Source of the DNA: an uncultured delta proteobacterium | GTDB lineage: Bacteria > Desulfobacterota > Binatia > UBA9968 | Assembly: GCA_963745835.1 (NCBI GenBank) | Contig: CAVUZH010000016.1 | Location: forward strand, 192,001-256,000 | Length of the DNA stretch: 64,000 nucleotides | Reading direction: 5' to 3' | In this document: positions 3,638 through 61,975 of the stretch, one piece after another | Numbering within the stretch: the stretch's first letter is position 1 | How the letters are laid out: the number at the start of each line of letters is the position of its first letter | Notes under the pieces: generated by a model | Seen by the model: the letters and a program-made list of their open reading frames with translations, nothing else | Database searches by the model: none | Told to the model about the DNA's origin: nothing | Made by a program: the position numbers and the translations under genes

Positions 3638-4426
3638 ATGGCTGCACAAGCGTTTTTTACGGAACACCGGCGGCTGTGGCTCGCACTCTGCTCCGTCTTA
3701 GTCTTGATCGCATCATGGGAATTGGTTTTGACCTACCTCTTCCCAGTAGATCCATTCTTCTTTACCAAGCCTTCACTGATCGGCGCAGCATTTAAAGAGC
3801 AAATCCAAGGGAGCAAACTCTGGCACGACCTCGCGGTAAGCAGCCAGGCTTTCCTCTGGGGCTTCACCTTCGCCGTGATCGTCGGCATCCCTCTTGGCTT
3901 AGTCATGGGTTGGCGCAGAAGAGTCGAATACTCGCTGGACCCGTTCTTAACCGCGCTTTACGCTAGCCCGCTGGTTGCTCTAGCGCCGTTGTTCATTATC
4001 GTTTTTGGCGTTGGCGTGCTCGGTAAGGCAGCGCTGGTTTTCTTACTCGCTGTTTTTCCATTCATCTTCAATACATTTGCCGGCGTCAAATCGACGGACG
4101 CGCTGTTAATCAATGTTATTCGATCGTTCGGCGGGAGTGAGAAGGATCTATACCTTAAGGTCATTCTGCCAAGCACGATGCCCTACATTATCGCTGGCGC
4201 CCGCCTTGCCATTGGCCGAGGTTTGGTCGGTATCATTGTCGGGGAATTCTATGCCGCTTCCGAGGGAATCGGTTTCGCCATTTCCCAAGCGGGCGATACC
4301 TACCGTCTCCCTGACATGTTCGTCGGCATTATCATTCTGTCGCTGATTGCGATTATTCTGACCGAGCTGATGCGCAGGCTTGAGCTCACGGTTGCGCCGT
4401 GGCGTGCGGGCGACGAGGTACGCTGA
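3638..4426 (+). CDS. ABC transporter permease (SsuC/TauC type)
   Basis: multiple TM helices, EAA-like loop, GIIVGEFY motif. Confidence 0.92.
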   Translation: MAAQAFFTEHRRLWLALCSVLVLIASWELVLTYLFPVDPFFFTKPSLIGAAFKEQIQGSKLWHDLAVSSQAFLWGFTFAVIVGIPLGLVMGWRRRVEYSLDPFLTALYASPLVALAPLFIIVFGVGVLGKAALVFLLAVFPFIFNTFAGVKSTDALLINVIRSFGGSEKDLYLKVILPSTMPYIIAGARLAIGRGLVGIIVGEFYAASEGIGFAISQAGDTYRLPDMFVGIIILSLIAIILTELMRRLELTVAPWRAGDEVR

Positions 4427-5223
4427 TGAAACCAGCCAAAATTTTTGCAGAGCACGAATCGTTAATATTCGGTTCCGGTTTTATCGTCCTATTACTTGTC
4501 GTATGGGAAAGCATTCCGCTCTGGTACACCCTGCCAAAGGGAATGGCGCTCTTCTTCACCACGCCCTCGAGAATCGCCGCGGCGTTTTATGAATTGCTTC
4601 TCGATGGGACCATCGAAAAACACTTTTACATCAGCGCAGTCGCCTTTCTGGCGGGACTAGGCTTGTCCATAATTGTCGGACTGCCGTTGGGGCTCGTTAT
4701 GGGAAGGTCAGTGACTCTCGAGCATTTACTGGATCCCTATGTGACCGCAGCCAATGCCACCCCCAGAATCGTCTTTTTGCCACTATTGATTCTCTGGTTC
4801 GGGATCGGCATTTGGTCGAAGATCCTGATCGTCTTTGCTGGCGCAGTTTTTCCGTTGCTCATCAATACCTATATTGGCGTCAAAAACGTCAACAGAGTTC
4901 TGGTGAATGTCGTGAGATCGTTTGGCGCTAATGAATGGCAAGTGATGAAAATCGTGGTGCTGCCGAATTCGGTTCCATACATCATCGCCGGGCTAAGGTT
5001 GGCCATCGGCAGAGCAATCCTCGGGGTCGTGGTCGGCGAATTTTTCGGCTCGAGCCACGGATTGGGTTACATGATCGCTTCCGCCGCTACCAACTACAAG
5101 GTAGACGTCGTCTTCGTCGGCGTCGCAATCTTCATGGCGCTTTCCGTGATCCTAACTCTCGCCGTAAAGCAACTCGAGTCCCGCCTAGCCAGCTGGCGTC
5201 CTGAAGCGGCAAAGAGTTTCTAG
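4426..5223 (+). CDS. second ABC transporter permease (SsuC/TauC type)
   Basis: TGATG stop/start overlap at 4424-4428; paralog of the previous permease (LDPYVTA, VVVGEFF). Confidence 0.92.
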   Translation: MKPAKIFAEHESLIFGSGFIVLLLVVWESIPLWYTLPKGMALFFTTPSRIAAAFYELLLDGTIEKHFYISAVAFLAGLGLSIIVGLPLGLVMGRSVTLEHLLDPYVTAANATPRIVFLPLLILWFGIGIWSKILIVFAGAVFPLLINTYIGVKNVNRVLVNVVRSFGANEWQVMKIVVLPNSVPYIIAGLRLAIGRAILGVVVGEFFGSSHGLGYMIASAATNYKVDVVFVGVAIFMALSVILTLAVKQLESRLASWRPEAAKSF

Positions 5224-5257
5224 AGCTACCGCTCTTTAGTGCTGACTCACCATGTGG

Positions 5258-6268
5258 TTACTTCCCTCCCGGTTTGCGCCCCATTTCCTTGAGAACTTCA
5301 TTAACGATACTACGATCAACGAACTGATTTAGATCCGGTAGCGGTTTGCCCTGTGGCCAGCCGAGTTCGGGGGTGGTTCGGGACTCGAACAGATCTTGGA
5401 TTAGGTCGGGCGGCATTTCGGGGCTGTACTTGTCATATACCTGACTATAAATGCTTTCGACCACTTTGGGATCTTTGATTTCAAAATATTTCTCAATCAC
5501 CTCCATGGTCCCTTTCTTGTTGTTCCTGATGTAATCCTCGGCTTTGATAATACCTCGGGTGAAGCGCTTGACGACATCACGTTTCTCTTTGATGAAATCT
5601 CGATGAGTGAGAAATGTTCCCCCCAAGCGCGGAATATAGTCGCCAGTGCGCATAAGAATCTTCATGCCCTCTTTTTCCGCTCGCGCCGCGTGTGGAAATG
5701 ATAGCACGCCGCCCTGAATCGAGCCTTGGATCAGGGCGGCAATTCGGTCGGGCTCGCCCGTGAAGCTGATCACTCGATAATCTTTGCCGGGCTGCATTTT
5801 GAAGTGCTTACCGAGGGTGATGACAATTTCGCTGTAATCGGCGGAGCCAGGGCGACCCAGGCCCAAGGTTTTGCCGCGAAGATCCTCGACCCGCTTGATG
5901 TCCGGCGTCGTCGTTAGCGTCCACTGTGAGATCAAAGATTCTCCCACGAAAAATACCAATGGCGCGCCCTTGAGCATCGCTTCCGAACCCCCGCCGGGAA
6001 TCGGCGTGAACTCGATCTCTTTGGCAATGGTCGCTCTGACCAGCACACCCGCGGTCGCAGCGATGAAACTGGCATCCAATCCCTCGGCCTTGAAAAGGCC
6101 TTTATCAATGGCGACGTAGGATGGAATGTGAAAGCCACTTCCACCGACGGTTCTTCCGACTTTGACCGATTGCGCGAAGATGGTCGTATGCCCGGCAACT
6201 ATCGTAAGGGTCACGGCTGCGAGAGCGGCAAAGAAATGTTCCCTACAAATCACCTTACGCAGATTCAT
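5258..6268 (-). CDS. ABC transporter substrate-binding protein (NMT1/SsuA/TauA-like)
   Basis: signal peptide, YVAIDKGLFKAEGLD, DLRGKTLG. Confidence 0.88.
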   Translation of the reverse strand: MNLRKVICREHFFAALAAVTLTIVAGHTTIFAQSVKVGRTVGGSGFHIPSYVAIDKGLFKAEGLDASFIAATAGVLVRATIAKEIEFTPIPGGGSEAMLKGAPLVFFVGESLISQWTLTTTPDIKRVEDLRGKTLGLGRPGSADYSEIVITLGKHFKMQPGKDYRVISFTGEPDRIAALIQGSIQGGVLSFPHAARAEKEGMKILMRTGDYIPRLGGTFLTHRDFIKEKRDVVKRFTRGIIKAEDYIRNNKKGTMEVIEKYFEIKDPKVVESIYSQVYDKYSPEMPPDLIQDLFESRTTPELGWPQGKPLPDLNQFVDRSIVNEVLKEMGRKPGGK

Positions 6269-7386: not shown

Positions 7387-8097
7387 CTAGTTCTGGAAGC
7401 GAAATCGAAATATGTAATACAGCGCCGAAACCCCGTCTTTCCAAGTAATCTTCTTGCCCTCTTGGTAGGTGCGACCATGATACGAGATCGGCACTTCGTA
7501 GAAGCGGTAACCCTTTTTGGCTAGCTTCATCGTGACTTCGGGCTCGAAGCCGAAACGATTCGATTCCAATCTGATGCTTTTGAGGACTTCAGCCCGAAAC
7601 ATCTTGTAACCCACTTCCATATCCGAAAGGTTCAAGTTGGTCAGCATGTTCGAGACCAACGTGAGCATCCGATTGCCTAACGAGTGCCAGAAGAATAATA
7701 CGCGATGCGCGCCCCCCCCGGCGAATCGAGTTCCATAGACCACGTCGGCAAGACCTCGCTCGATGGGTTCCAACAGCGCCGGATAATCGTGCGGGTCGTA
7801 CTCGAGATCGGCGTCCTGAATGATTATGACCTCGCCGCGCGCGTGATCCAAGGCGACTTTGATCGCCGCCCCTTTTCCCTGGTTATGAGGCTGTAAAAAA
7901 AATTTAAGTTCGTTCAGCGGGTCCGGCGCGCGCTCAGTTTCTACTTGCAGTCGGGTCAGAATTTCCCGGCTTCGATCTTTGGAGCCGTCATCAACCAGGA
8001 TAATTTCTTTGGGTAACTCGATAGAACACACGCGGCGGACAACCTCTTCGAGGGTGCGCTCTTCGTTATAGACCGGGATTAAAACTGACAGCTTCAC
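7387..8097 (-). CDS. GT2 glycosyltransferase (polyprenol-phosphate sugar synthase-like)
   Basis: LSVLIPVYNE, VDDGSKD, QDADLEYDP, FGFEPE, GKKITWKDG. Confidence 0.92.
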   Translation of the reverse strand: MKLSVLIPVYNEERTLEEVVRRVCSIELPKEIILVDDGSKDRSREILTRLQVETERAPDPLNELKFFLQPHNQGKGAAIKVALDHARGEVIIIQDADLEYDPHDYPALLEPIERGLADVVYGTRFAGGGAHRVLFFWHSLGNRMLTLVSNMLTNLNLSDMEVGYKMFRAEVLKSIRLESNRFGFEPEVTMKLAKKGYRFYEVPISYHGRTYQEGKKITWKDGVSALYYIFRFRFQN

Positions 8098-8879
8098 TGC
8101 TCGAATTCGCGCTTTTTAAGCTCACGAATATAGGCAGAGAGCTTGGGGTCGGCATTGACCGCTTCGTTGAGTTTTGCCTGGAAGTCAGCGGCGGCTCGTT
8201 CCAAGGGGCTCATATCGAGACGAATGCCCAGCCATTGGGTAAGCCGCAGCAAGAGCGCCAATGTGCCTCGTGGATTGGGCGACACAGAAAGGTAGTGAGG
8301 CAACGCGGCCCAGAGACTTAAACTGGGTATTGCAGCCTTACGACATACTTCGTTTAGGACACCAATGATTCCTGTCGGCCCTTGATACCGCGACGGTACC
8401 AGATCGAGCTGTTCCATCAGTTTGGGATCTGTAGAGAAACCGGAAAGCGGAACCGGACGCGTGTATAGAACTTCGTCGAGATAGGCGCCCAGGGTGACCA
8501 GCATTCCAACTTGGCACTCGCGGATGAAGCGCAACATCGTTTCGGTAAATGCTCGCCATCGCAACTGCGGCTCTACGCCAACCCCAAACACGAAATCCGC
8601 CTGCGCGCCGATGCCCTCGCCATAAAAGAAATCGTACGAGGGCCAGTGAATCTCGCGTTCTTTGTTATCGTTTAAGCGAACCATAGGGCGCTGCACCGAG
8701 AAGTCATAAAACTCTTCCGGATCGATGCTGGCGAATCTTTTGGCTAGGAGTTGATCGCACATATACCGAGAGGCGGTTGTCGCCGCCGAGCCAGCATCAC
8801 TCCAACCGGCAAAAGATAAAATGAGAATGGGATTTTTTAGACTGGGACGACTCTCAAAGTTGAGAGGTTCGATAACCAT
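8094..8879 (-). CDS. PAC2 (proteasome assembly chaperone) family protein
   Basis: FAGWSDAG, IDPEEFYDF..RP, GVEPQLRW, YQGPTGI, WAALPHY, PNPRG. Confidence 0.85.
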   Translation of the reverse strand: MVIEPLNFESRPSLKNPILILSFAGWSDAGSAATTASRYMCDQLLAKRFASIDPEEFYDFSVQRPMVRLNDNKEREIHWPSYDFFYGEGIGAQADFVFGVGVEPQLRWRAFTETMLRFIRECQVGMLVTLGAYLDEVLYTRPVPLSGFSTDPKLMEQLDLVPSRYQGPTGIIGVLNEVCRKAAIPSLSLWAALPHYLSVSPNPRGTLALLLRLTQWLGIRLDMSPLERAAADFQAKLNEAVNADPKLSAYIRELKKREFEQ

Positions 8880-9141
8880 ATCCGATCATAGCACACTGAA
8901 GCTATTTTATACAAAATTGTTATACGCTGTTCGGGCAAATGTTCTGCCACACGGTTTGCAGGCATGAGATCGATGATCGCCCAGCGATGGGCGCCTTCTG
9001 CCTTCAATATATGGGGGCCGATCGTTTGTCGTAACGGCGACTATAGCACTCGACAGAACAGCAGTCTTCAAGCTTTGCATGCTTAAATCTCTCGAGACTG
9101 GAAGCCGATCGTCAAAAGCTGGTATCATCAGTTTGTCGACG

Positions 9142-9876
9142 ATGGAGAGCAAGGCTGCTTTGATAACCGGCGGCGCCCGCGGCATTGGTCGCGCGGTGGC
9201 CCTGGATTTAGCGTCCCGCGGGTGGTCCGTGGCCATTTGCTATCGCACCAGCGCCAGTGCCGCGCACGAAGTCATCGAATCCATAAGACGCCACGGCACG
9301 GCCGCGCTTGCGTTTAAATGCGATGTCTCGGACCCACGCGCCGCCACTGCGATGGTCCGCGATCTGGAAAATCAATGGGGGCGCCTCGACGCGTTGATTA
9401 ATAGCGCCGGTCCTTATCATCGCATTCCTTTATTGGACGAAACCAACGAAGGCTGGCATTCGATGTTCGACAACAACCTTCATCCGATTTTTTATTTGAC
9501 CAAGGCGGTGGTTCCTTTAATGAAACAACGCAACTGGGGACGCATCATTTGCTTCAGCATGGCGAATGCAGAGCAGCTGATGGCTCAACCGCAACTGACT
9601 GCACATTACATCTCGAAGGTCGGAGTGATCGTTTTGATGCGCTCGCTGGCTCGCTTGGTTGCGCCCTATGGCATCACCGCAAATTGCATCGCGCCAGGGT
9701 ACATAGATTCCGGCAGCGCGCCCAGGGAGGAGTTGGAAGCCGCAGTAAAACGCATTCCGGCCGGTTATATCGGTACGGTCGAAGAGACAGCGGCTGTGGT
9801 GCGTTTCTTAGTGTCTGACGAGGCTCGCTATATCAATGGCGCCAATATTCAGATCAGCGGCGCCTGGGGGGTTTAA
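9142..9876 (+). CDS. SDR family oxidoreductase (FabG-like)
   Basis: TGGARGIG, INSAG, YISK in a YxxxK-like site, IAPGYID. Confidence 0.88.
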   Translation: MESKAALITGGARGIGRAVALDLASRGWSVAICYRTSASAAHEVIESIRRHGTAALAFKCDVSDPRAATAMVRDLENQWGRLDALINSAGPYHRIPLLDETNEGWHSMFDNNLHPIFYLTKAVVPLMKQRNWGRIICFSMANAEQLMAQPQLTAHYISKVGVIVLMRSLARLVAPYGITANCIAPGYIDSGSAPREELEAAVKRIPAGYIGTVEETAAVVRFLVSDEARYINGANIQISGAWGV

Positions 9877-54250: not shown

Positions 54251-55216
54251 GTGCAACTCATCATCCTTTCAATACTCTTCTGGCTCGTACTGGCATCCCC
54301 TGCAAGAGCTAGTTACCTGACCGCTGCCGAACAGCTTAAAGGTATCGGAGCCTCATTTAGCTGGCACGATGTCCGATCCCGAAGCTTAAAGATCGTCGTT
54401 GAATATCAAATGAACGGTGAACTCAAACGAGCCAATCTCGGTTCCGGTTTCCTGATCTCGGCCGATGGACTGTTCGTTACAGCGTATCACGTGATGTCCT
54501 ATTGCTTGCTTAATCAAAAGAGCAAGAGCCGCTTCGCCGAAACCGTTGATTGCTCGATTGCCAATCCGCGGGCGCGCTACAAAGCTCAAAATGGCGATCA
54601 GGAATACGAGATACAGATCCTGTCGCATCTGACGGAAGCGGATTCGACCAGCGGCAAGAAGCAGCATACGCCGGATGAAATCATTAAAAACAGAGACTTT
54701 GTCATTGGCAGGCTCAAGGCCGATGTGCAGACCCGTTTTTCTCATTGGGAGCTGCGGGATTACGAACAGGGCAAAATCAGCCTGAGTAAGCCGCGGGCGG
54801 ATTTCGAATTGAAGCCGTTGCGGCCGCCGAGGAAAGTCTTCATCGTCGGCTACCCCCGCGATGGGGAGTTTGAAATTGCTCATGGATTCTTGAATCTCAC
54901 CGACGAAAAACATCGCGGCTACTTTGCCGCTGACTACAAACTCTACGAACCCGCCTACCTAAAGACCGAGGGAATCGAACCCGACACCAAGTGGGGCATC
55001 GCCGTTGCCAATCACATGAGCGGCGGTGTGGTGGTTGATGCCCTCGGACATCCGGTAGGGGTCGTCGTCAACGGCAACCAGAATACCGCCGGAGTTCTTT
55101 CCATCGAAAATGTATTAGAAACTTTCTTCTCGCGAAAACGCGATTCCGAGTCTCAGCCAAAAGTCATTTTGACGCCTACCAGCACGCCCCTGTTTCTCAA
55201 ACGCGCGCCGAATTGA
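54251..55216 (+). CDS. secreted trypsin-like (S1) serine protease
   Basis: signal peptide, GSGFLIS, TAYHV (His), DFVIG (Asp), HMSGG (Ser). Confidence 0.75.
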   Translation: MQLIILSILFWLVLASPARASYLTAAEQLKGIGASFSWHDVRSRSLKIVVEYQMNGELKRANLGSGFLISADGLFVTAYHVMSYCLLNQKSKSRFAETVDCSIANPRARYKAQNGDQEYEIQILSHLTEADSTSGKKQHTPDEIIKNRDFVIGRLKADVQTRFSHWELRDYEQGKISLSKPRADFELKPLRPPRKVFIVGYPRDGEFEIAHGFLNLTDEKHRGYFAADYKLYEPAYLKTEGIEPDTKWGIAVANHMSGGVVVDALGHPVGVVVNGNQNTAGVLSIENVLETFFSRKRDSESQPKVILTPTSTPLFLKRAPN

Positions 55217-58839: not shown

Positions 58840-59031
58840 TTCGACGATGAACAGAATGACGGGTCGCTATTTTCATCGACCTGCCATATTCTCGAGCTGA
58901 CTTCACTGGCAAAAACGCTTTACAAGAGCACGAGCGCAGAGTAGATTTCTCACCGGCGCCGACGTTCGATCGGACCCTCCCATATCGATACTATTTTCAC
59001 TAAATGTCAGAATCACTCCGCCGTAGCCCTC

Positions 59032-60717
59032 ATGAATGACATCTTTATCAGCTATGACAGCGCCGATCGGGCGATTGCGCAGAAATTTGCCGACGCTTTG
59101 GAATCGCGCGGCTGGTCGGTCTGGTGGGACCGGGAGATTCCGCTAGGTAAAGCATTCGATCAGGTAATTGAGGAAGAGTTGAATGCGGCGCGCTGCGTGA
59201 TCGTCTTGTGGTCGAATCAGTCGGTGCGCTCGAGATGGGTGAAGACCGAAGCGGCGGCGGCCGCCGATCGAGATTGTCTGCTTCCGGTGTTGATTGAGGA
59301 TATCGCCATTCCGTTCGAGTTTAAACGCATCCAAACGGCAATGCTCATGAACTGGCGCGGAGACGATTCCGATCCCGAGTTCAACAGGCTAATTGCGGCC
59401 ATCGAACAGCTGGCTAGGGAGCCGGCGCGCTCACTTCCGTTCCCAGGTGCAAGCCAGACGAACAAGCCGGCCCGAAGACGAATGCCAACGGCCCGATGGA
59501 TTATTGCCGCTGCGGTTGCTTTGCTGGTCATTGCCGGCGCCGTAGCCGTAAGAAATCTTGTTCGGCAGGCTGACCCGCCGCCACAGCAAATATCGTCCGG
59601 GTCCGGCAACCCTCCCGCGCCGGCAACACAGCCGGCCGGGTCACCCGAGCCTATACCGGAACCCTCCCGCGGCACGGCGAAATCAACCGCATCGCATGGC
59701 GCCTTCTCGATCAAGATTGGTGACAAAATTGCCGACGGCGTTCCAGGAGCCGGCGCCGGCATTATCGAGACGCCGTACGGCCAGGATGTTTATGTATTTA
59801 AGGCTGCTCCCCGGCAAAGAGTTTATTTCCGTCTGCTCGGCCGCAGCACCGGAATGGATTATATCAATTGGAAATTAACCGATGCGGACGGCACCGAGGT
59901 ATTCAACGCTTGCTTGGGATGTTCCGAACCGGGAGTGCGGGCGCTTACCAAGGGCGGCACCTACACACTGACGATCGGCAACGACAAAAATCCCGCCACC
60001 GGAACTTATCAGATTCAGCTGTTCGACGTGCCGCCGCCTAAACAATTTTCGATAAAGATCGGCGATCAGATCAAGGAGGATGTACCGGGTCCGGGAGCGG
60101 GGATCATCGAAAGTCCCGGCGCCCAGGATATCTACACCTTCGATGCAAGGCCGCGGCAAAAAATCTATTTCCGACCTTGGGAGCACAGCGCCGGCATGTC
60201 CTATATTAAATGGCAGTTAACCGATAGCGACGGCACGGTGGTGTTCGATACATGCCTGGGCTGCGGCGAACTTGGAGTTCAGACCCTCACTAAAGGCGGA
60301 ACCTATAGCCTCGCAGTAGGCCATGAGAGTAATCCGGCCACTGGCACGTATCGACTGCAACTCTACGATGTGCCTTTGTCGAAGCAATTCTCGATAAAGC
60401 TAGGCGATCGAATCAGGCCCGGTATGCCGGCTGCCGGAGCCGGAACAATTGAAACTCCGGGAACGGAGGACGTTTATGTATTCAGCGCTACGGCGGGGCA
60501 AAAAGTCTCCTTTCGAATAACAGAACGCAGCAAGGGAATGGATTACATCAACTGGCGCTTAGCCGATGACAACGGCATGGAGCTGTTTAACAGTTGTCTT
60601 GCTTGCGGTGAGCGCGGCGTCCAGACGCTGAGCAAAGGCGGCACTTACACCCTGACGATCGGCAATACCCGAAACCCTGCCACCGGCGATTACGGTTTTG
60701 AGATTGGCGCCCCCTGA
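59032..60717 (+). CDS. TIR domain - single TM - 3x beta-rich CxxC repeat protein
   Basis: DIFISY, WWDREI, VLWS..S..SRWV..E TIR motifs; TM WIIAAAVALLVIAGAVAV; Pro-rich linker; three 114-aa repeats. Confidence 0.85.
   Translation: MNDIFISYDSADRAIAQKFADALESRGWSVWWDREIPLGKAFDQVIEEELNAARCVIVLWSNQSVRSRWVKTEAAAAADRDCLLPVLIEDIAIPFEFKRIQTAMLMNWRGDDSDPEFNRLIAAIEQLAREPARSLPFPGASQTNKPARRRMPTARWIIAAAVALLVIAGAVAVRNLVRQADPPPQQISSGSGNPPAPATQPAGSPEPIPEPSRGTAKSTASHGAFSIKIGDKIADGVPGAGAGIIETPYGQDVYVFKAAPRQRVYFRLLGRSTGMDYINWKLTDADGTEVFNACLGCSEPGVRALTKGGTYTLTIGNDKNPATGTYQIQLFDVPPPKQFSIKIGDQIKEDVPGPGAGIIESPGAQDIYTFDARPRQKIYFRPWEHSAGMSYIKWQLTDSDGTVVFDTCLGCGELGVQTLTKGGTYSLAVGHESNPATGTYRLQLYDVPLSKQFSIKLGDRIRPGMPAAGAGTIETPGTEDVYVFSATAGQKVSFRITERSKGMDYINWRLADDNGMELFNSCLACGERGVQTLSKGGTYTLTIGNTRNPATGDYGFEIGAP
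59704..60717 (+). repeat. three tandem 342-bp coding repeats
   Basis: FSIK(I/L)GD starts at 59704, 60046 and 60388; shared GAG.IE.P, D.Y.F, CLxC, KGGTY, NPATG.Y. Confidence 0.9.
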
Positions 60718-60772
60718 GTCATCAATTGACGCCATCTGGATAACGGTTGACTCGCTTCTATAGGTGATTTAG

Positions 60773-60983
60773 CCCTAATCCGACAATAGTTGAGCACCGT
60801 CAACAGTGAGCGAGGATGGCGAGACCGCAAGCTGTGGGCACCCGAGGGCGCAGTTGGCTCTAAGGCCCGGGAGTAGGAACATCACCGTTAGGGGAATGTG
60901 GGGTGCCCTTCAAGGCACTATCCCATTGCCCACGGCTGTAGGGCTCGCCTGCCTCGCGGCGTTCGAACAATGTCGGATTAGGG
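60773..60983. mobile_element. MITE-like 211-bp element with highly structured interior
   Basis: perfect TIR CCCTAATCCGACA/TGTCGGATTAGGG; TTAG on both flanks (60769-72, 60984-87); nested internal stems; no transposase. Confidence 0.65.
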
Positions 60984-61546
60984 TTAGCTGGTGGACATGA
61001 TCGACTTCTAAGAGGTCTCTTGTTTTTTACCATAACGATCGTCGCTCAGGACGGAAGAGCACATGAGTAAAGTAGCGCTGCGCTGAAGGCACGCTATTCA
61101 GATCGACCCGTTCTCTTTAAAAAGAGATAGTTCAGAAGTAAGCAAACATGATCATTAGTCAGGTCATCTGTTTCGTTTAAACCCGTCGCTCTAGCCTGTA
61201 TTCGAAAGCTTAAAGTGCGATGTAATCCCTTATTCGTCAACTGAAGCCCCCTGCGTCTCTTCGCCGTTTGCAAGGTCTTTAAATTCCTGTCGGTTGATTC
61301 ACCCATAGCGCTTGTGCTATGAACCGCGCCCTCGCTGCGCAGTGACAACCCGCCTTCCTTTGGCAGCCTGTCAAAGGCGCTGCGCTGGCGAGGCCCAAAG
61401 GAGGCGATATGCTAGACCTACGACCTTGGCTTGTATCTCTCGTCATCGGATTGGGTTTTTGGGGTTTTGTTTCTGTCTGCTTATCGTTGCTCATGCACTA
61501 GCGACTGCGCGGCAGGTCACGACCTCTAGGCATGGAGAGAAACATC

Positions 61547-61666
61547 ATGACGGTTCTGATAGTCAATTTCCTCATTGCGGCGCAGTGGTTATTCAGTGCC
61601 ACTCTGCAAGACAAGCGACACTCCCGAGAAGCCATAAGCCACCCGAAGGCCGTCGGTGGGGTCTAG
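61547..61666 (+). CDS. putative 39-aa small hydrophobic protein
   Basis: GGAG RBS, then MTVLIVNFLIAAQWLFSATLQDKRHSREAISHPKAVGGV. Confidence 0.3.
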   Translation: MTVLIVNFLIAAQWLFSATLQDKRHSREAISHPKAVGGV

Positions 61667-61675
61667 CAACCGCTG

Positions 61676-61975
61676 CTAAGCGGACATTCCCGCGTTTGCC
61701 TCCTTGGAAGCAATTCGCTCCCAGTCGTCAATGCGCCCGCGCTGGTATCGGTCATGACCTTCCAGTTTAACCAGCTTATTATACAGGCCAATGATCAGCC
61801 AGGTGGGCACCCACTGAGCGATGAAGTTTCCCCATTTCCCTTTGCCAGCCACTTGGCAAGCCAGTGAGAGCCCCATAGCACCGATAGCGACAGCGAGATA
61901 CCCAGCTGACGGTACAGCGGCTGTGTAAGATTCGATTGTTTTTGTGAACTGGTCTTCAATTGGTCGTGGTTCCAT
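61676..61975 (-). CDS. small membrane hypothetical protein
   Basis: RBS AGGAGGT; hydrophobic segment and GNFIAQWVPTWLIIGLYNKLVKLEGHD. Confidence 0.75.
   Translation of the reverse strand: MEPRPIEDQFTKTIESYTAAVPSAGYLAVAIGAMGLSLACQVAGKGKWGNFIAQWVPTWLIIGLYNKLVKLEGHDRYQRGRIDDWERIASKEANAGMSA

Follow-up and report, generated by a model that had tools for sequence, protein, structure and literature searches.

Background

TIR domains that carry a particular conserved glutamate are effectors in the Thoeris, CBASS, Pycsar and retron systems of bacteria. TIR enzymes that cleave NAD+ (NADases) are switched on by oligomerisation, as in SARM1, the plant TIRs, Thoeris, TIR-STING and TIR-SAVED, and the bacterial TIR systems known to us sense their triggers in the cytoplasm. 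The prokaryotic TIR groups are architecturally diverse, and the available part of one survey notes this diversity without reviewing the groups (PMC7075850). A second study (Kaur et al. 2021; PMC8195603) describes lectin-like sensors that are intracellular (NPCBM, FGS) in fusion to TIR domains or to serine/threonine/tyrosine kinases, and reports caspase proteins with extracellular sensors behind transmembrane (TM) helices. Here we analyse a TIR gene on a 64,000-nucleotide stretch of DNA from an uncultured delta proteobacterium of the Binatia lineage UBA9968 (positions 192,001 to 256,000 of contig CAVUZH010000016.1, assembly GCA_963745835.1; "the window" below). The open reading frame (ORF) at 59032..60717 on the plus strand was confirmed as real, and its 561-residue product joins an N-terminal TIR domain, through one TM helix and a stalk, to three repeats of the PPC type. 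We propose that this protein is a transmembrane sensor-effector in a single polypeptide, whose periplasmic repeats would bind a ligand and whose cytoplasmic TIR NADase would be the output. To this reading, taken with the enzyme activity, clustering, ligand and role that it implies, we assign a probability of about 0.5.

One ectodomain with two kinds of output

The strongest argument that the ectodomain is the sensor and the TIR domain the output is the occurrence of the same TM-ectodomain module with a kinase in place of the TIR. In proteins P0176 and P0264 a Pkinase domain is followed by a single hydrophobic helix, a stalk and three repeats of the kind found in the query, with the CxxC pair. 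The ectodomain of P0176 aligns without gaps to that of the query at 42% identity over 355 residues (E 2e-105), and it is the ectodomain alone that is shared, the query itself having no Pkinase match in the Pfam scan. The initial annotation of this gene had proposed a receptor-like layout of cytoplasmic TIR, one TM helix and extracytoplasmic repeats; that layout is supported, among other things by the presence of the module of TM helix and three repeats behind Hanks-type Ser/Thr kinase domains as well.

The TIR domain itself belongs to a large group. One genome per species (185,579 species) was scanned with two TIR peptide patterns, and 491 of the 549 matches encode relatives of this TIR. The best 80 of these 491 relatives, at 79 loci, were examined, each protein being read from the start of the match. 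In 72 of the 79 a hydrophobic segment (Kyte-Doolittle value of at least 1.6) follows just after the TIR, at residues ~141-225; L079 scores 1.51. The architecture is thus not a singular oddity. Twelve of the 79 loci (L020-L031) have the TIR-TM-repeat architecture, and their labels include Binatia or 'delta proteobacterium', Syntrophobacteraceae, Acidiferrales, Terriglobia, Chthoniobacterales and Burkholderiales. Fifty-eight of the proteins were scanned with Pfam; the scan omitted 11 of the 67 non-orthologous proteins, six because contig ends cut them and five as same-length siblings of scanned proteins. A recognisable C-terminal domain was present in 17 of the 56 non-orthologous proteins scanned: PDZ in five, FGE-sulfatase in two (one with PG_binding_1), SLT in two, and YARHG, pYEATS, Lcl_C, WD40, SWIB and PP-binding in one each, together with one CarboxypepD_reg and one DUF3108, both under their cut-offs. 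Judged by these predicted domains, the protein is one member of a large class in which a TIR subfamily is joined via one TM helix to interchangeable extracytoplasmic binding domains. A full-text literature search, which did not cover most subscription journals and supplements, found no described bacterial class of TIR-TM-ectodomain receptors. Fusions of TIR effectors to sensors are already known; the membrane-spanning subclass with periplasmic sensors and the kinase/TIR swap appear to be uncharacterised.

The genome of the window has six TIR_2 matches and, besides this gene, encodes three more TIR-TM proteins (L003, G000 C13:566126-566515; L005, C8:70816-71136; L006, C19:272843-273265). Between them these carry one PPC-like domain preceded by a charged coiled-coil linker (recognised by eye only), an FGE-sulfatase domain (Pfam E 2e-55) and a short Pro/Ser/Gln tail. 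Two other TIR proteins of this genome, L002 and L007, have unknown N-terminal domains and no TM helix.

Close homologs of the whole protein were collected by a word-indexed protein search, which gave 401 matches at E<=1e-3 among 8000 candidates scored. Of the 120 matches listed, 110 span 99% or more of the query, with identities of 48-99%. Named sources among the matches include metagenome-assembled genomes of Candidatus Binatia, Deltaproteobacteria and Burkholderiales. Several Joint Genome Institute records label the protein 'eukaryotic-like serine/threonine-protein kinase', which is wrong for these proteins; the kinase homologs P0176 and P0264 may be the source of this label.

The TIR domain

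Pfam TIR_2 (PF13676) matches residues 4-120 of the protein with an E-value of 9.4e-25 (87.9 bits against a cut-off of 28). A phmmer search of the PDB sequences aligns residues 3-92 with 7uxr, with AbTIR (7uwg/8g83) and with the TIR-STING fusion 6wt6 (E 3e-5 to 7e-3), and in all of them E73 falls on the glutamate of the W-x-x-x-E motif, which we take to be the catalytic residue in AbTIR. This is the glutamate of the segment RWVKTEA to which the initial annotation had drawn attention in assigning an N-terminal TIR. Both E73 and W69 are kept in 79 of the 79 relatives, and these two residues were not part of the retrieval patterns; the WWD and FISY motifs were, and their conservation is therefore by construction. 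In the AlphaFold2 model the domain alternates between strands and helices, with a predicted local distance difference test (pLDDT) score of 67-90 per 10-residue block and ~83 on average. As far as alignment can tell, it is a TIR of the NAD-cleaving type with its WxxxE glutamate intact, and it would be expected to cleave NAD+.

Similarity to the TIR parts of defence systems is limited to this core. Pfam ThsB_TIR matches residues 5-80 with 26 bits (cut-off 21.2), while the PADLOC and NCBIfam matches (SAVED_TIR, ThsB, retron-TIR and ThcB4) are confined to the TIR core and fall far under the curated cut-offs. A two-copy complex prediction of residues 1-135 (score 0.00, mark 0.42) was uninformative on self-association.

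Membrane topology and the cysteine pairs

The protein has no signal peptide and begins directly with the first TIR strand. Its only strongly hydrophobic segment (residues ~155-176) comes directly after a basic RRR patch and is followed by a proline-rich stalk, all as first described (Table 1). Lysine and arginine within the 15 residues flanking the TM helix are more frequent on the N-terminal side in 85 of 116 orthologs (the opposite in 11), and the same is seen in 47 of 61 other TIR-TM relatives (opposite in 6, equal in 8). This charge bias and the absence of a signal peptide argue for an N-in orientation with extracytoplasmic repeats, and since the genome encodes two Omp85-family genes, the organism is diderm and the repeats would lie in the periplasm. 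Together these features support a type II (N-in) single-pass inner-membrane protein, with the TIR predicted to be cytoplasmic and the repeats periplasmic. The initial placement of the TIR inside and the repeats outside the cytoplasm therefore stands on the charge bias, the lack of a signal peptide and the paired cysteines described below, but 'outside' here means the periplasm and not the cell exterior, given the Omp85 genes. For the same reason an external phage or glycan, which had been named as a possible direct ligand, is unlikely.

Every repeat contains the CLxC motif that had been reported for it, and the distribution of this pair was followed by motif search in the query and the 120 listed homologs (121 proteins). 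In the 344 repeats of 120 proteins both cysteines are present in 322, neither in 22 and a single one in none; counted by protein, 112 have all cysteines and eight are without them throughout. Seven homologs in a 31-sequence alignment replace both cysteines in all three repeats. The CxxC pair thus behaves as a dispensable disulfide by which each repeat is probably stapled, and its all-or-none occurrence favours an oxidising compartment and disfavours an indispensable metal or redox site. Metal or redox sensing through CxxC as a conserved function, one of the possibilities raised earlier, is ruled out by the eight of 120 homologs that have neither cysteine in any repeat.

The repeats

The repeats start at residues 225, 339 and 453, and the third copy, of 109 residues, ends the protein. 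They had been described as three exact 114-residue, beta-rich repeats. The period is indeed exact and the AlphaFold2 repeats are all-beta with pLDDT >90, but the sequences are not exact copies: pairwise identities are 73/114, 66/109 and 57/109 residues, or 52-64%, with 61-65% at the DNA level. BLASTP between the repeats gives E-values of 4e-50 and 2e-45, far beyond chance, and Tandem Repeats Finder found zero DNA-level arrays in 59000-60800, the repeat being visible at the protein level only. The triplication is therefore real but old, because its copies have diverged and leave no array in the DNA. By motif search in the same 121 proteins, 105 have three copies, 11 have two, one has four, three have one and one has none; two repeats are found, for example, in L025 (Acidiferrales label, 8001-9314) and in P0227.

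No Pfam family exceeds its cut-off in the C-terminal 340 residues. Repeat 2 was modelled alone from an alignment of 31 repeats (pLDDT 92) and compared with 48,161 representative PDB chains. The top structural match is the PPC domain of a Bacillus collagenase (5sv5; Z 10.5, root mean square deviation 2.3 Å, 95/105 residues, 21% identity). The collagen-binding domains of ColG/ColH (1nqd, 5iku, 3jqw) match with Z 9.7-10.0, and GOLD domains and the periplasmic lysozyme inhibitor PliG match about equally, with Z 9.4-10.3; in the model, the fold class of the repeat is clearer than its family. Foldseek on the single repeat concurs, with CUB domains in addition. Multi-domain CUB matches (cubilin, neuropilin, MASP) had also come from the whole 561-residue model, with TM-scores (a measure of structural similarity) of 0.10-0.23, and were rejected in favour of the single-repeat model. 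The early guess that the repeat is 'PPC/CBM-like' agrees well with these PPC and collagen-binding matches at Z ~10, from the AlphaFold model and from Foldseek on one repeat.

At the sequence level the relationship to PPC is distant. PF04151 is not among the whole-protein Pfam matches at E<=0.01, repeat 2 alone gives zero matches to it at E<=1, and 6 of the 31 aligned repeats match it, with a best E-value of 0.014. Searching with a profile of the repeat yields 3985 representative proteins at E<=1e-3, of which 715 reach E<=1e-30; copy numbers are 2-28 and lengths 246-7273 residues. Fifty-two of the best 150 matches, chosen for length up to 1335 residues, were scanned with Pfam: 13 reach PF04151 at E<=1e-5 (up to E 4e-21), three have TIR_2, two have a protein kinase domain, and many have Big, cadherin-like, He_PIG, FG-GAP or Laminin_B domains. 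The signature P-G-x-G-A-G-x-I-E-x-P-G is conserved. The repeat is a divergent PPC-type module, typical of extracytoplasmic proteins. The family as a whole (proteins P0122-P0269) is large and thinly covered by Pfam, with up to 28 tandem copies and adhesin-type domains in many members.

That the repeat family is found mostly in very large adhesin-like surface proteins, of 2-28 copies and up to 7273 residues, would suit a non-enzymatic envelope protein, in which the PPC repeats anchor or organise an envelope polymer and the TIR is a mere interaction or oligomerisation module. Animal TIR domains are commonly adaptors (PMC7075850). For a scaffold, the invariance of E73 and W69 in 79 of 79 relatives and the rank of the TIR as the most conserved part of the protein are unexpected, and no conserved cytoplasmic partner gene was found beside the orthologs. 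We consider such a role highly improbable.

Conservation of the parts and the proposed mechanism

Over 31 full-length homologs the TIR has a mean pairwise identity of 0.72, against 0.59-0.63 for the repeats and 0.17-0.27 for the linker, TM helix and stalk. Ratios of nonsynonymous to synonymous substitution (dN/dS, or omega; pairwise NG86 against six orthologs) are 0.06-0.13 for the TIR, 0.08-0.18 for the three repeats together (0.06-0.27 for single repeats) and 0.29-0.42 for linker, TM helix and stalk. On these ratios both the TIR and the repeats are under purifying selection.

Because TIR NADases need oligomerisation and single-pass receptors signal by association, we propose that ligand-driven clustering leads to NAD+ cleavage. 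The PPC repeats would be engaged by a multivalent ligand, either in the periplasm or associated with the envelope, or by an altered envelope state, and receptors would thereby be brought together. The cytoplasmic TIR domains would then assemble into active oligomers, and these would cleave NAD+, with either depletion and growth arrest or an ADP-ribose-derived signal as the result. As to the cue, we favour surveillance of the envelope, by sensing of a polymer in the envelope or periplasm or of damage to such a polymer, and not the direct binding of phage, since the ectodomains of the class are often envelope modules (SLT, PG_binding_1, PDZ, FGE-sulfatase and PPC) and the repeats are conserved and not diversifying. 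FGE-sulfatase is described as lectin-like in PMC8195603.

The segments between the two folded parts invite another mechanism, in which the TM helix and ectodomain hold the TIR dispersed and inactive, and envelope damage or proteolysis in the stalk or TM helix frees it to self-assemble and deplete NAD+, in the manner of anti-sigma factors. Linker, TM helix and stalk are the least constrained parts of the protein by both measures and are predicted to be disordered, as cleavable tethers often are, and a PDZ ectodomain is present in 5 of the 56 non-orthologous members of the class that were scanned. A precedent comes from the amoeba protein TirC (PMC13142454): without its N-terminal TM helix, an otherwise tolerated TIR NADase becomes toxic, and release by proteolysis is what the authors propose. 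There is also a match of residues 125-191 to an NCBIfam model of single-pass anti-sigma factors (NF052375), but at 20.9 bits it is far under the cut-off of 100 and covers only the linker and TM helix, a region of low complexity. Distant orthologs have no conserved protease gene next to them; a tether would not need as many as three well conserved domains of the binding type; and the same ectodomain drives kinases, which signal by dimerisation and not by release. On balance we judge release from a tether unlikely, and keep the ligand-clustered sensor-effector as the preferred reading.

Distribution, genomic context and a possible immune role

Nine of 41 related genomes have any match at E<=1e-5, among them the window's own genome and the unpublished G018, which has a weak TIR match only. 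Full-length orthologs are present in G006 (93%), G005 (80%) and G003 (64%), and the copy in G024 matches query residues 1-444. G007, of the same genus, has only remnants of the gene, in the syntenic position that follows the same aldo/keto reductase gene. At that site (L015 1501-1910; G007:C134) the first ~42 and last ~27 codons are left, ~1.4 kb having been lost by internal deletion in this sister species. In L023 (8001-9669) a frameshift or an assembly error divides the ortholog between two frames beyond the second repeat. Soil and rhizosphere metagenomes from 10 studies contain the stretch. In four RNA libraries, each from a different study, short contigs carry parts of the gene at 90-99% likeness; they cover 9-16 of 30 bins per run, and bins 58840-58971 are uncovered in all four runs. 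These contigs are weakly compatible with transcription, DNA carry-over being possible.

The 20 kb upstream of the gene encode DnaB, dehydrogenases, a major facilitator superfamily transporter, an isochorismatase, a trypsin-like peptidase, 3-HAO, a TPM protein and an aldo/keto reductase, and the 18 kb downstream a PAS histidine kinase, response regulators and CheB/CheR proteins. No defence or mobile-element genes were found in these 38 kb, where PADLOC gave TIR-core and protease-core matches only; Pfam and PADLOC scans of the flanking genes thus agree with the initial annotation that no partner defence gene is adjacent. Among the flanks of the 12 ortholog loci, genes in common with the window, lying upstream, are found only in L020, L021 and L024, which are of the window's own genus and whose contig coordinates match those of G006, G005 and G003. 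No neighbour gene conserved in the distant orthologs was found at these 12 loci. A search of 2.9 million viral contigs gave 12 pattern matches, none of which encodes a relative.

These data bear directly on the role first suggested for the gene, a stand-alone anti-phage abortive-infection receptor whose repeats recognise a phage component and so trigger NAD+ depletion. TIR domains with this glutamate are defence effectors, PADLOC and NCBIfam models match such TIR parts, and both the patchy distribution (9 of 41 genomes, counting G018) and the deleted copy in the sister species would fit a defence gene. Moreover, E. coli was protected by TIR defence systems made up of a single gene, among them one with a TM domain (PMC11350192). 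An arms-race phage receptor is nonetheless not favoured, because the ectodomain is under purifying selection (omega 0.08-0.18) and the gene lies in no defence island. Nor does it lie beside a mobile element; the ectodomain is periplasmic in a diderm, all PADLOC matches are to the TIR core only, and the viral contigs hold zero relatives. An anti-phage receptor of this kind seems to us quite unlikely.

Several observations weigh against the sensor-effector reading that we prefer. The gene is dispensable, not being found in most relatives and being deleted to remnants in a sister species. The lack of diversifying selection on the ectodomain and the surroundings of housekeeping, two-component and chemotaxis genes weaken an immune role, though not the idea of a sensor, and the periplasmic location limits the possible ligands. 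The TM helix is not obligatory for TIR function, since soluble members of the subfamily exist: L035 (TIR with FGE-sulfatase), L059 (with SWIB) and L036 (with PP-binding) are without it. Finally, no downstream effector is linked to the gene, the sole SIR2_2 (PF13289) match in the genome being unlinked and split, which leaves a signalling output without an identified receiver. This SIR2_2 match (G000:C3:473216-473583; L100, L101) lies in two frames with a stop codon and may be a pseudogene.

Features of the locus and adjacent sequences

The coordinates of the gene and its parts are collected in Table 1. The full-length AlphaFold2 model has a mean pLDDT of 82.6, with low confidence at residues 134-156 and 174-221, and the start methionine is identical across all aligned orthologs.

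Table 1. Predicted features of the TIR-TM-repeat gene and its upstream region (positions in the window).
Feature	Position	Strand	Details
Upstream intergenic region	58840..59031	+	192 bp, 3' of the aldo/keto reductase gene; one weak sigma-70-like match at 58919-58947
Whole gene, TIR - TM - stalk - three PPC-like repeats	59032..60717	+	561 codons and stop
Predicted cytoplasmic TIR domain, residues 1-130	59032..59421	+	PF13676; solved bacterial TIR chains align; model
Glu73 codon, candidate catalytic Glu of W69-x-x-x-E73	59248..59250	+	Alignment with 7uxr, 7uwg/8g83 and 6wt6
Juxtamembrane linker, poorly conserved, with basic patch RRR at residues 148-150 (nt 59473-59481)	59422..59493	+	pLDDT <50; mean identity 0.17
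Predicted single TM helix, residues ~155-176	59494..59559	+	Mean Kyte-Doolittle value 2.35 over 19 residues; model helix 157-177
Pro/Ser/Ala-rich stalk, residues 177-224, predicted disordered	59560..59703	+	11 Pro in 48 residues; pLDDT <50; mean identity 0.21
Repeat 1, residues 225-338, predicted PPC-like beta-sandwich	59704..60045	+	Cys294/Cys297 at nt 59911-59922
Repeat 2, residues 339-452, predicted PPC-like beta-sandwich	60046..60387	+	Cys408/Cys411 at nt 60253-60264
Repeat 3, residues 453-561, predicted PPC-like beta-sandwich	60388..60714	+	Cys522/Cys525 at nt 60595-60606

The sigma-70-like match upstream of the gene is not above chance (1 found against 1.7 expected in shuffled sequences). 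An Rfam scan of the intergenic region matched zero families, and Rfam and tRNA scans of 58-63 kb of the window likewise gave zero matches. Downstream, ~960 bp at 60718-61675 are without a convincing ORF and show a drop in G+C (0.52 vs 0.57) and zero Rfam matches; they are followed on the minus strand by a hydrophobic ORF of 99 residues (61676-61975) with zero Pfam matches. In the histidine kinase region (L099 3760-5509; G000:C16:258760-260509) a PAS/HisKA ORF at 3760-5229 overlaps a HATPase_c ORF at 5018-5509 in a different frame; the pair has the look of a single histidine kinase gene, broken by a frameshift or sequencing error. A 665-residue CheB-CheR fusion ORF stands just upstream of it. 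The trypsin-like peptidase at window positions 54251-55216 (Trypsin_2, E 1e-8) has a hydrophobic N-terminus and weak matches to PADLOC RT-Protease_XI, to the protease part only.

Implications

The class to which the protein belongs is large, with members in many phyla of soil and water bacteria. More tentatively than for the single protein, and with appreciable doubt, we suggest that it may constitute a widespread family of bacterial transmembrane receptors with a TIR NADase output, in which the periplasmic domain would control TIR assembly, a cue would be converted into NAD+ depletion or an NAD-derived messenger, and the same ectodomain would be exchangeable between TIR and Hanks-type kinase outputs. 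If this is true, the family would be an analogue of Toll-like receptor logic that is prokaryotic and has enzyme activity, and bacteria would have a new mode of signalling across the membrane. Envelope cues would come within the reach of TIR/NAD+ signalling, and a new type of output would stand beside histidine kinases, Ser/Thr kinases, cyclases and anti-sigma factors. If instead the TIR proves inactive or constitutive, the finding reduces to the annotation of an envelope protein family. The natural swap of kinase and TIR on one ectodomain provides an experimental handle, through chimeras, a shared ligand or forced clustering.

Comparison with known systems

AbTIR (7uwg/8g83), 7uxr and TIR-STING (6wt6) share with this protein the TIR core, the aligned W-x-x-x-E glutamate and Pfam TIR_2. 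These proteins are soluble or fused to cytoplasmic sensors such as STING, whereas here the TIR is membrane-anchored with a predicted periplasmic C-terminal part, and the sequence similarity is weak. In Thoeris the TIR protein ThsB is the sensor of its system, and the Pfam ThsB_TIR match provides a likeness to it. ThsB proteins are cytoplasmic, and their partner ThsA (SIR2, Macro or TM domain with SLOG) is not adjacent here, where the neighbours include the aldo/keto reductase, the TPM protein and the PAS histidine kinase. Against the curated Thoeris models the protein scores low: NCBIfam type III ThcB4 gives 33.7 bits vs 220, and PADLOC ThsB matches with E 7e-6 to 5e-3 over the TIR core only. 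As for CBASS and Pycsar, there is no SAVED, STING or cNMP-binding domain in the protein and no cyclase among its neighbours, and PADLOC SAVED_TIR covers residues 3-78 only.

The fusions of PMC8195603 resemble this protein in uniting an effector and a binding-type sensor in one polypeptide, and FGE-sulfatase is found in the present TIR class too. The sensors in the available part of that paper are intracellular and PPC-type repeats are not mentioned there, whereas here a TM helix stands between TIR and sensor in 72 of 79. Amoeba TirC (PMC13142454) is also a TIR NADase on a single TM helix that restrains activity; it differs in being eukaryotic, in having the TM helix N-terminal to the TIR, and in having no ectodomain. 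The repeats have a fold in common with PPC (PF04151) and the collagen-binding domains of collagenases, but lie under the Pfam cut-off and have their own CxxC pair and P-G-x-G-A-G-x-I-E-x-P-G signature.

Toll-like and IL-1 receptors are likewise single-pass proteins with a ligand-binding ectodomain and a cytoplasmic TIR, and ligand-driven association is the logic proposed here. Their TIR is C-terminal (type I) and here it is N-terminal (type II); their ectodomains are built of leucine-rich repeats or Ig domains in place of PPC-type beta-sandwiches; and the enzyme-type glutamate is kept in the present protein. The relation is one of analogy and not of membership, without homology outside the TIR. 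The Hanks-type kinases P0176 and P0264 have the same order of output domain, TM helix, stalk and three CxxC repeats, the output being a protein kinase there and a TIR here.

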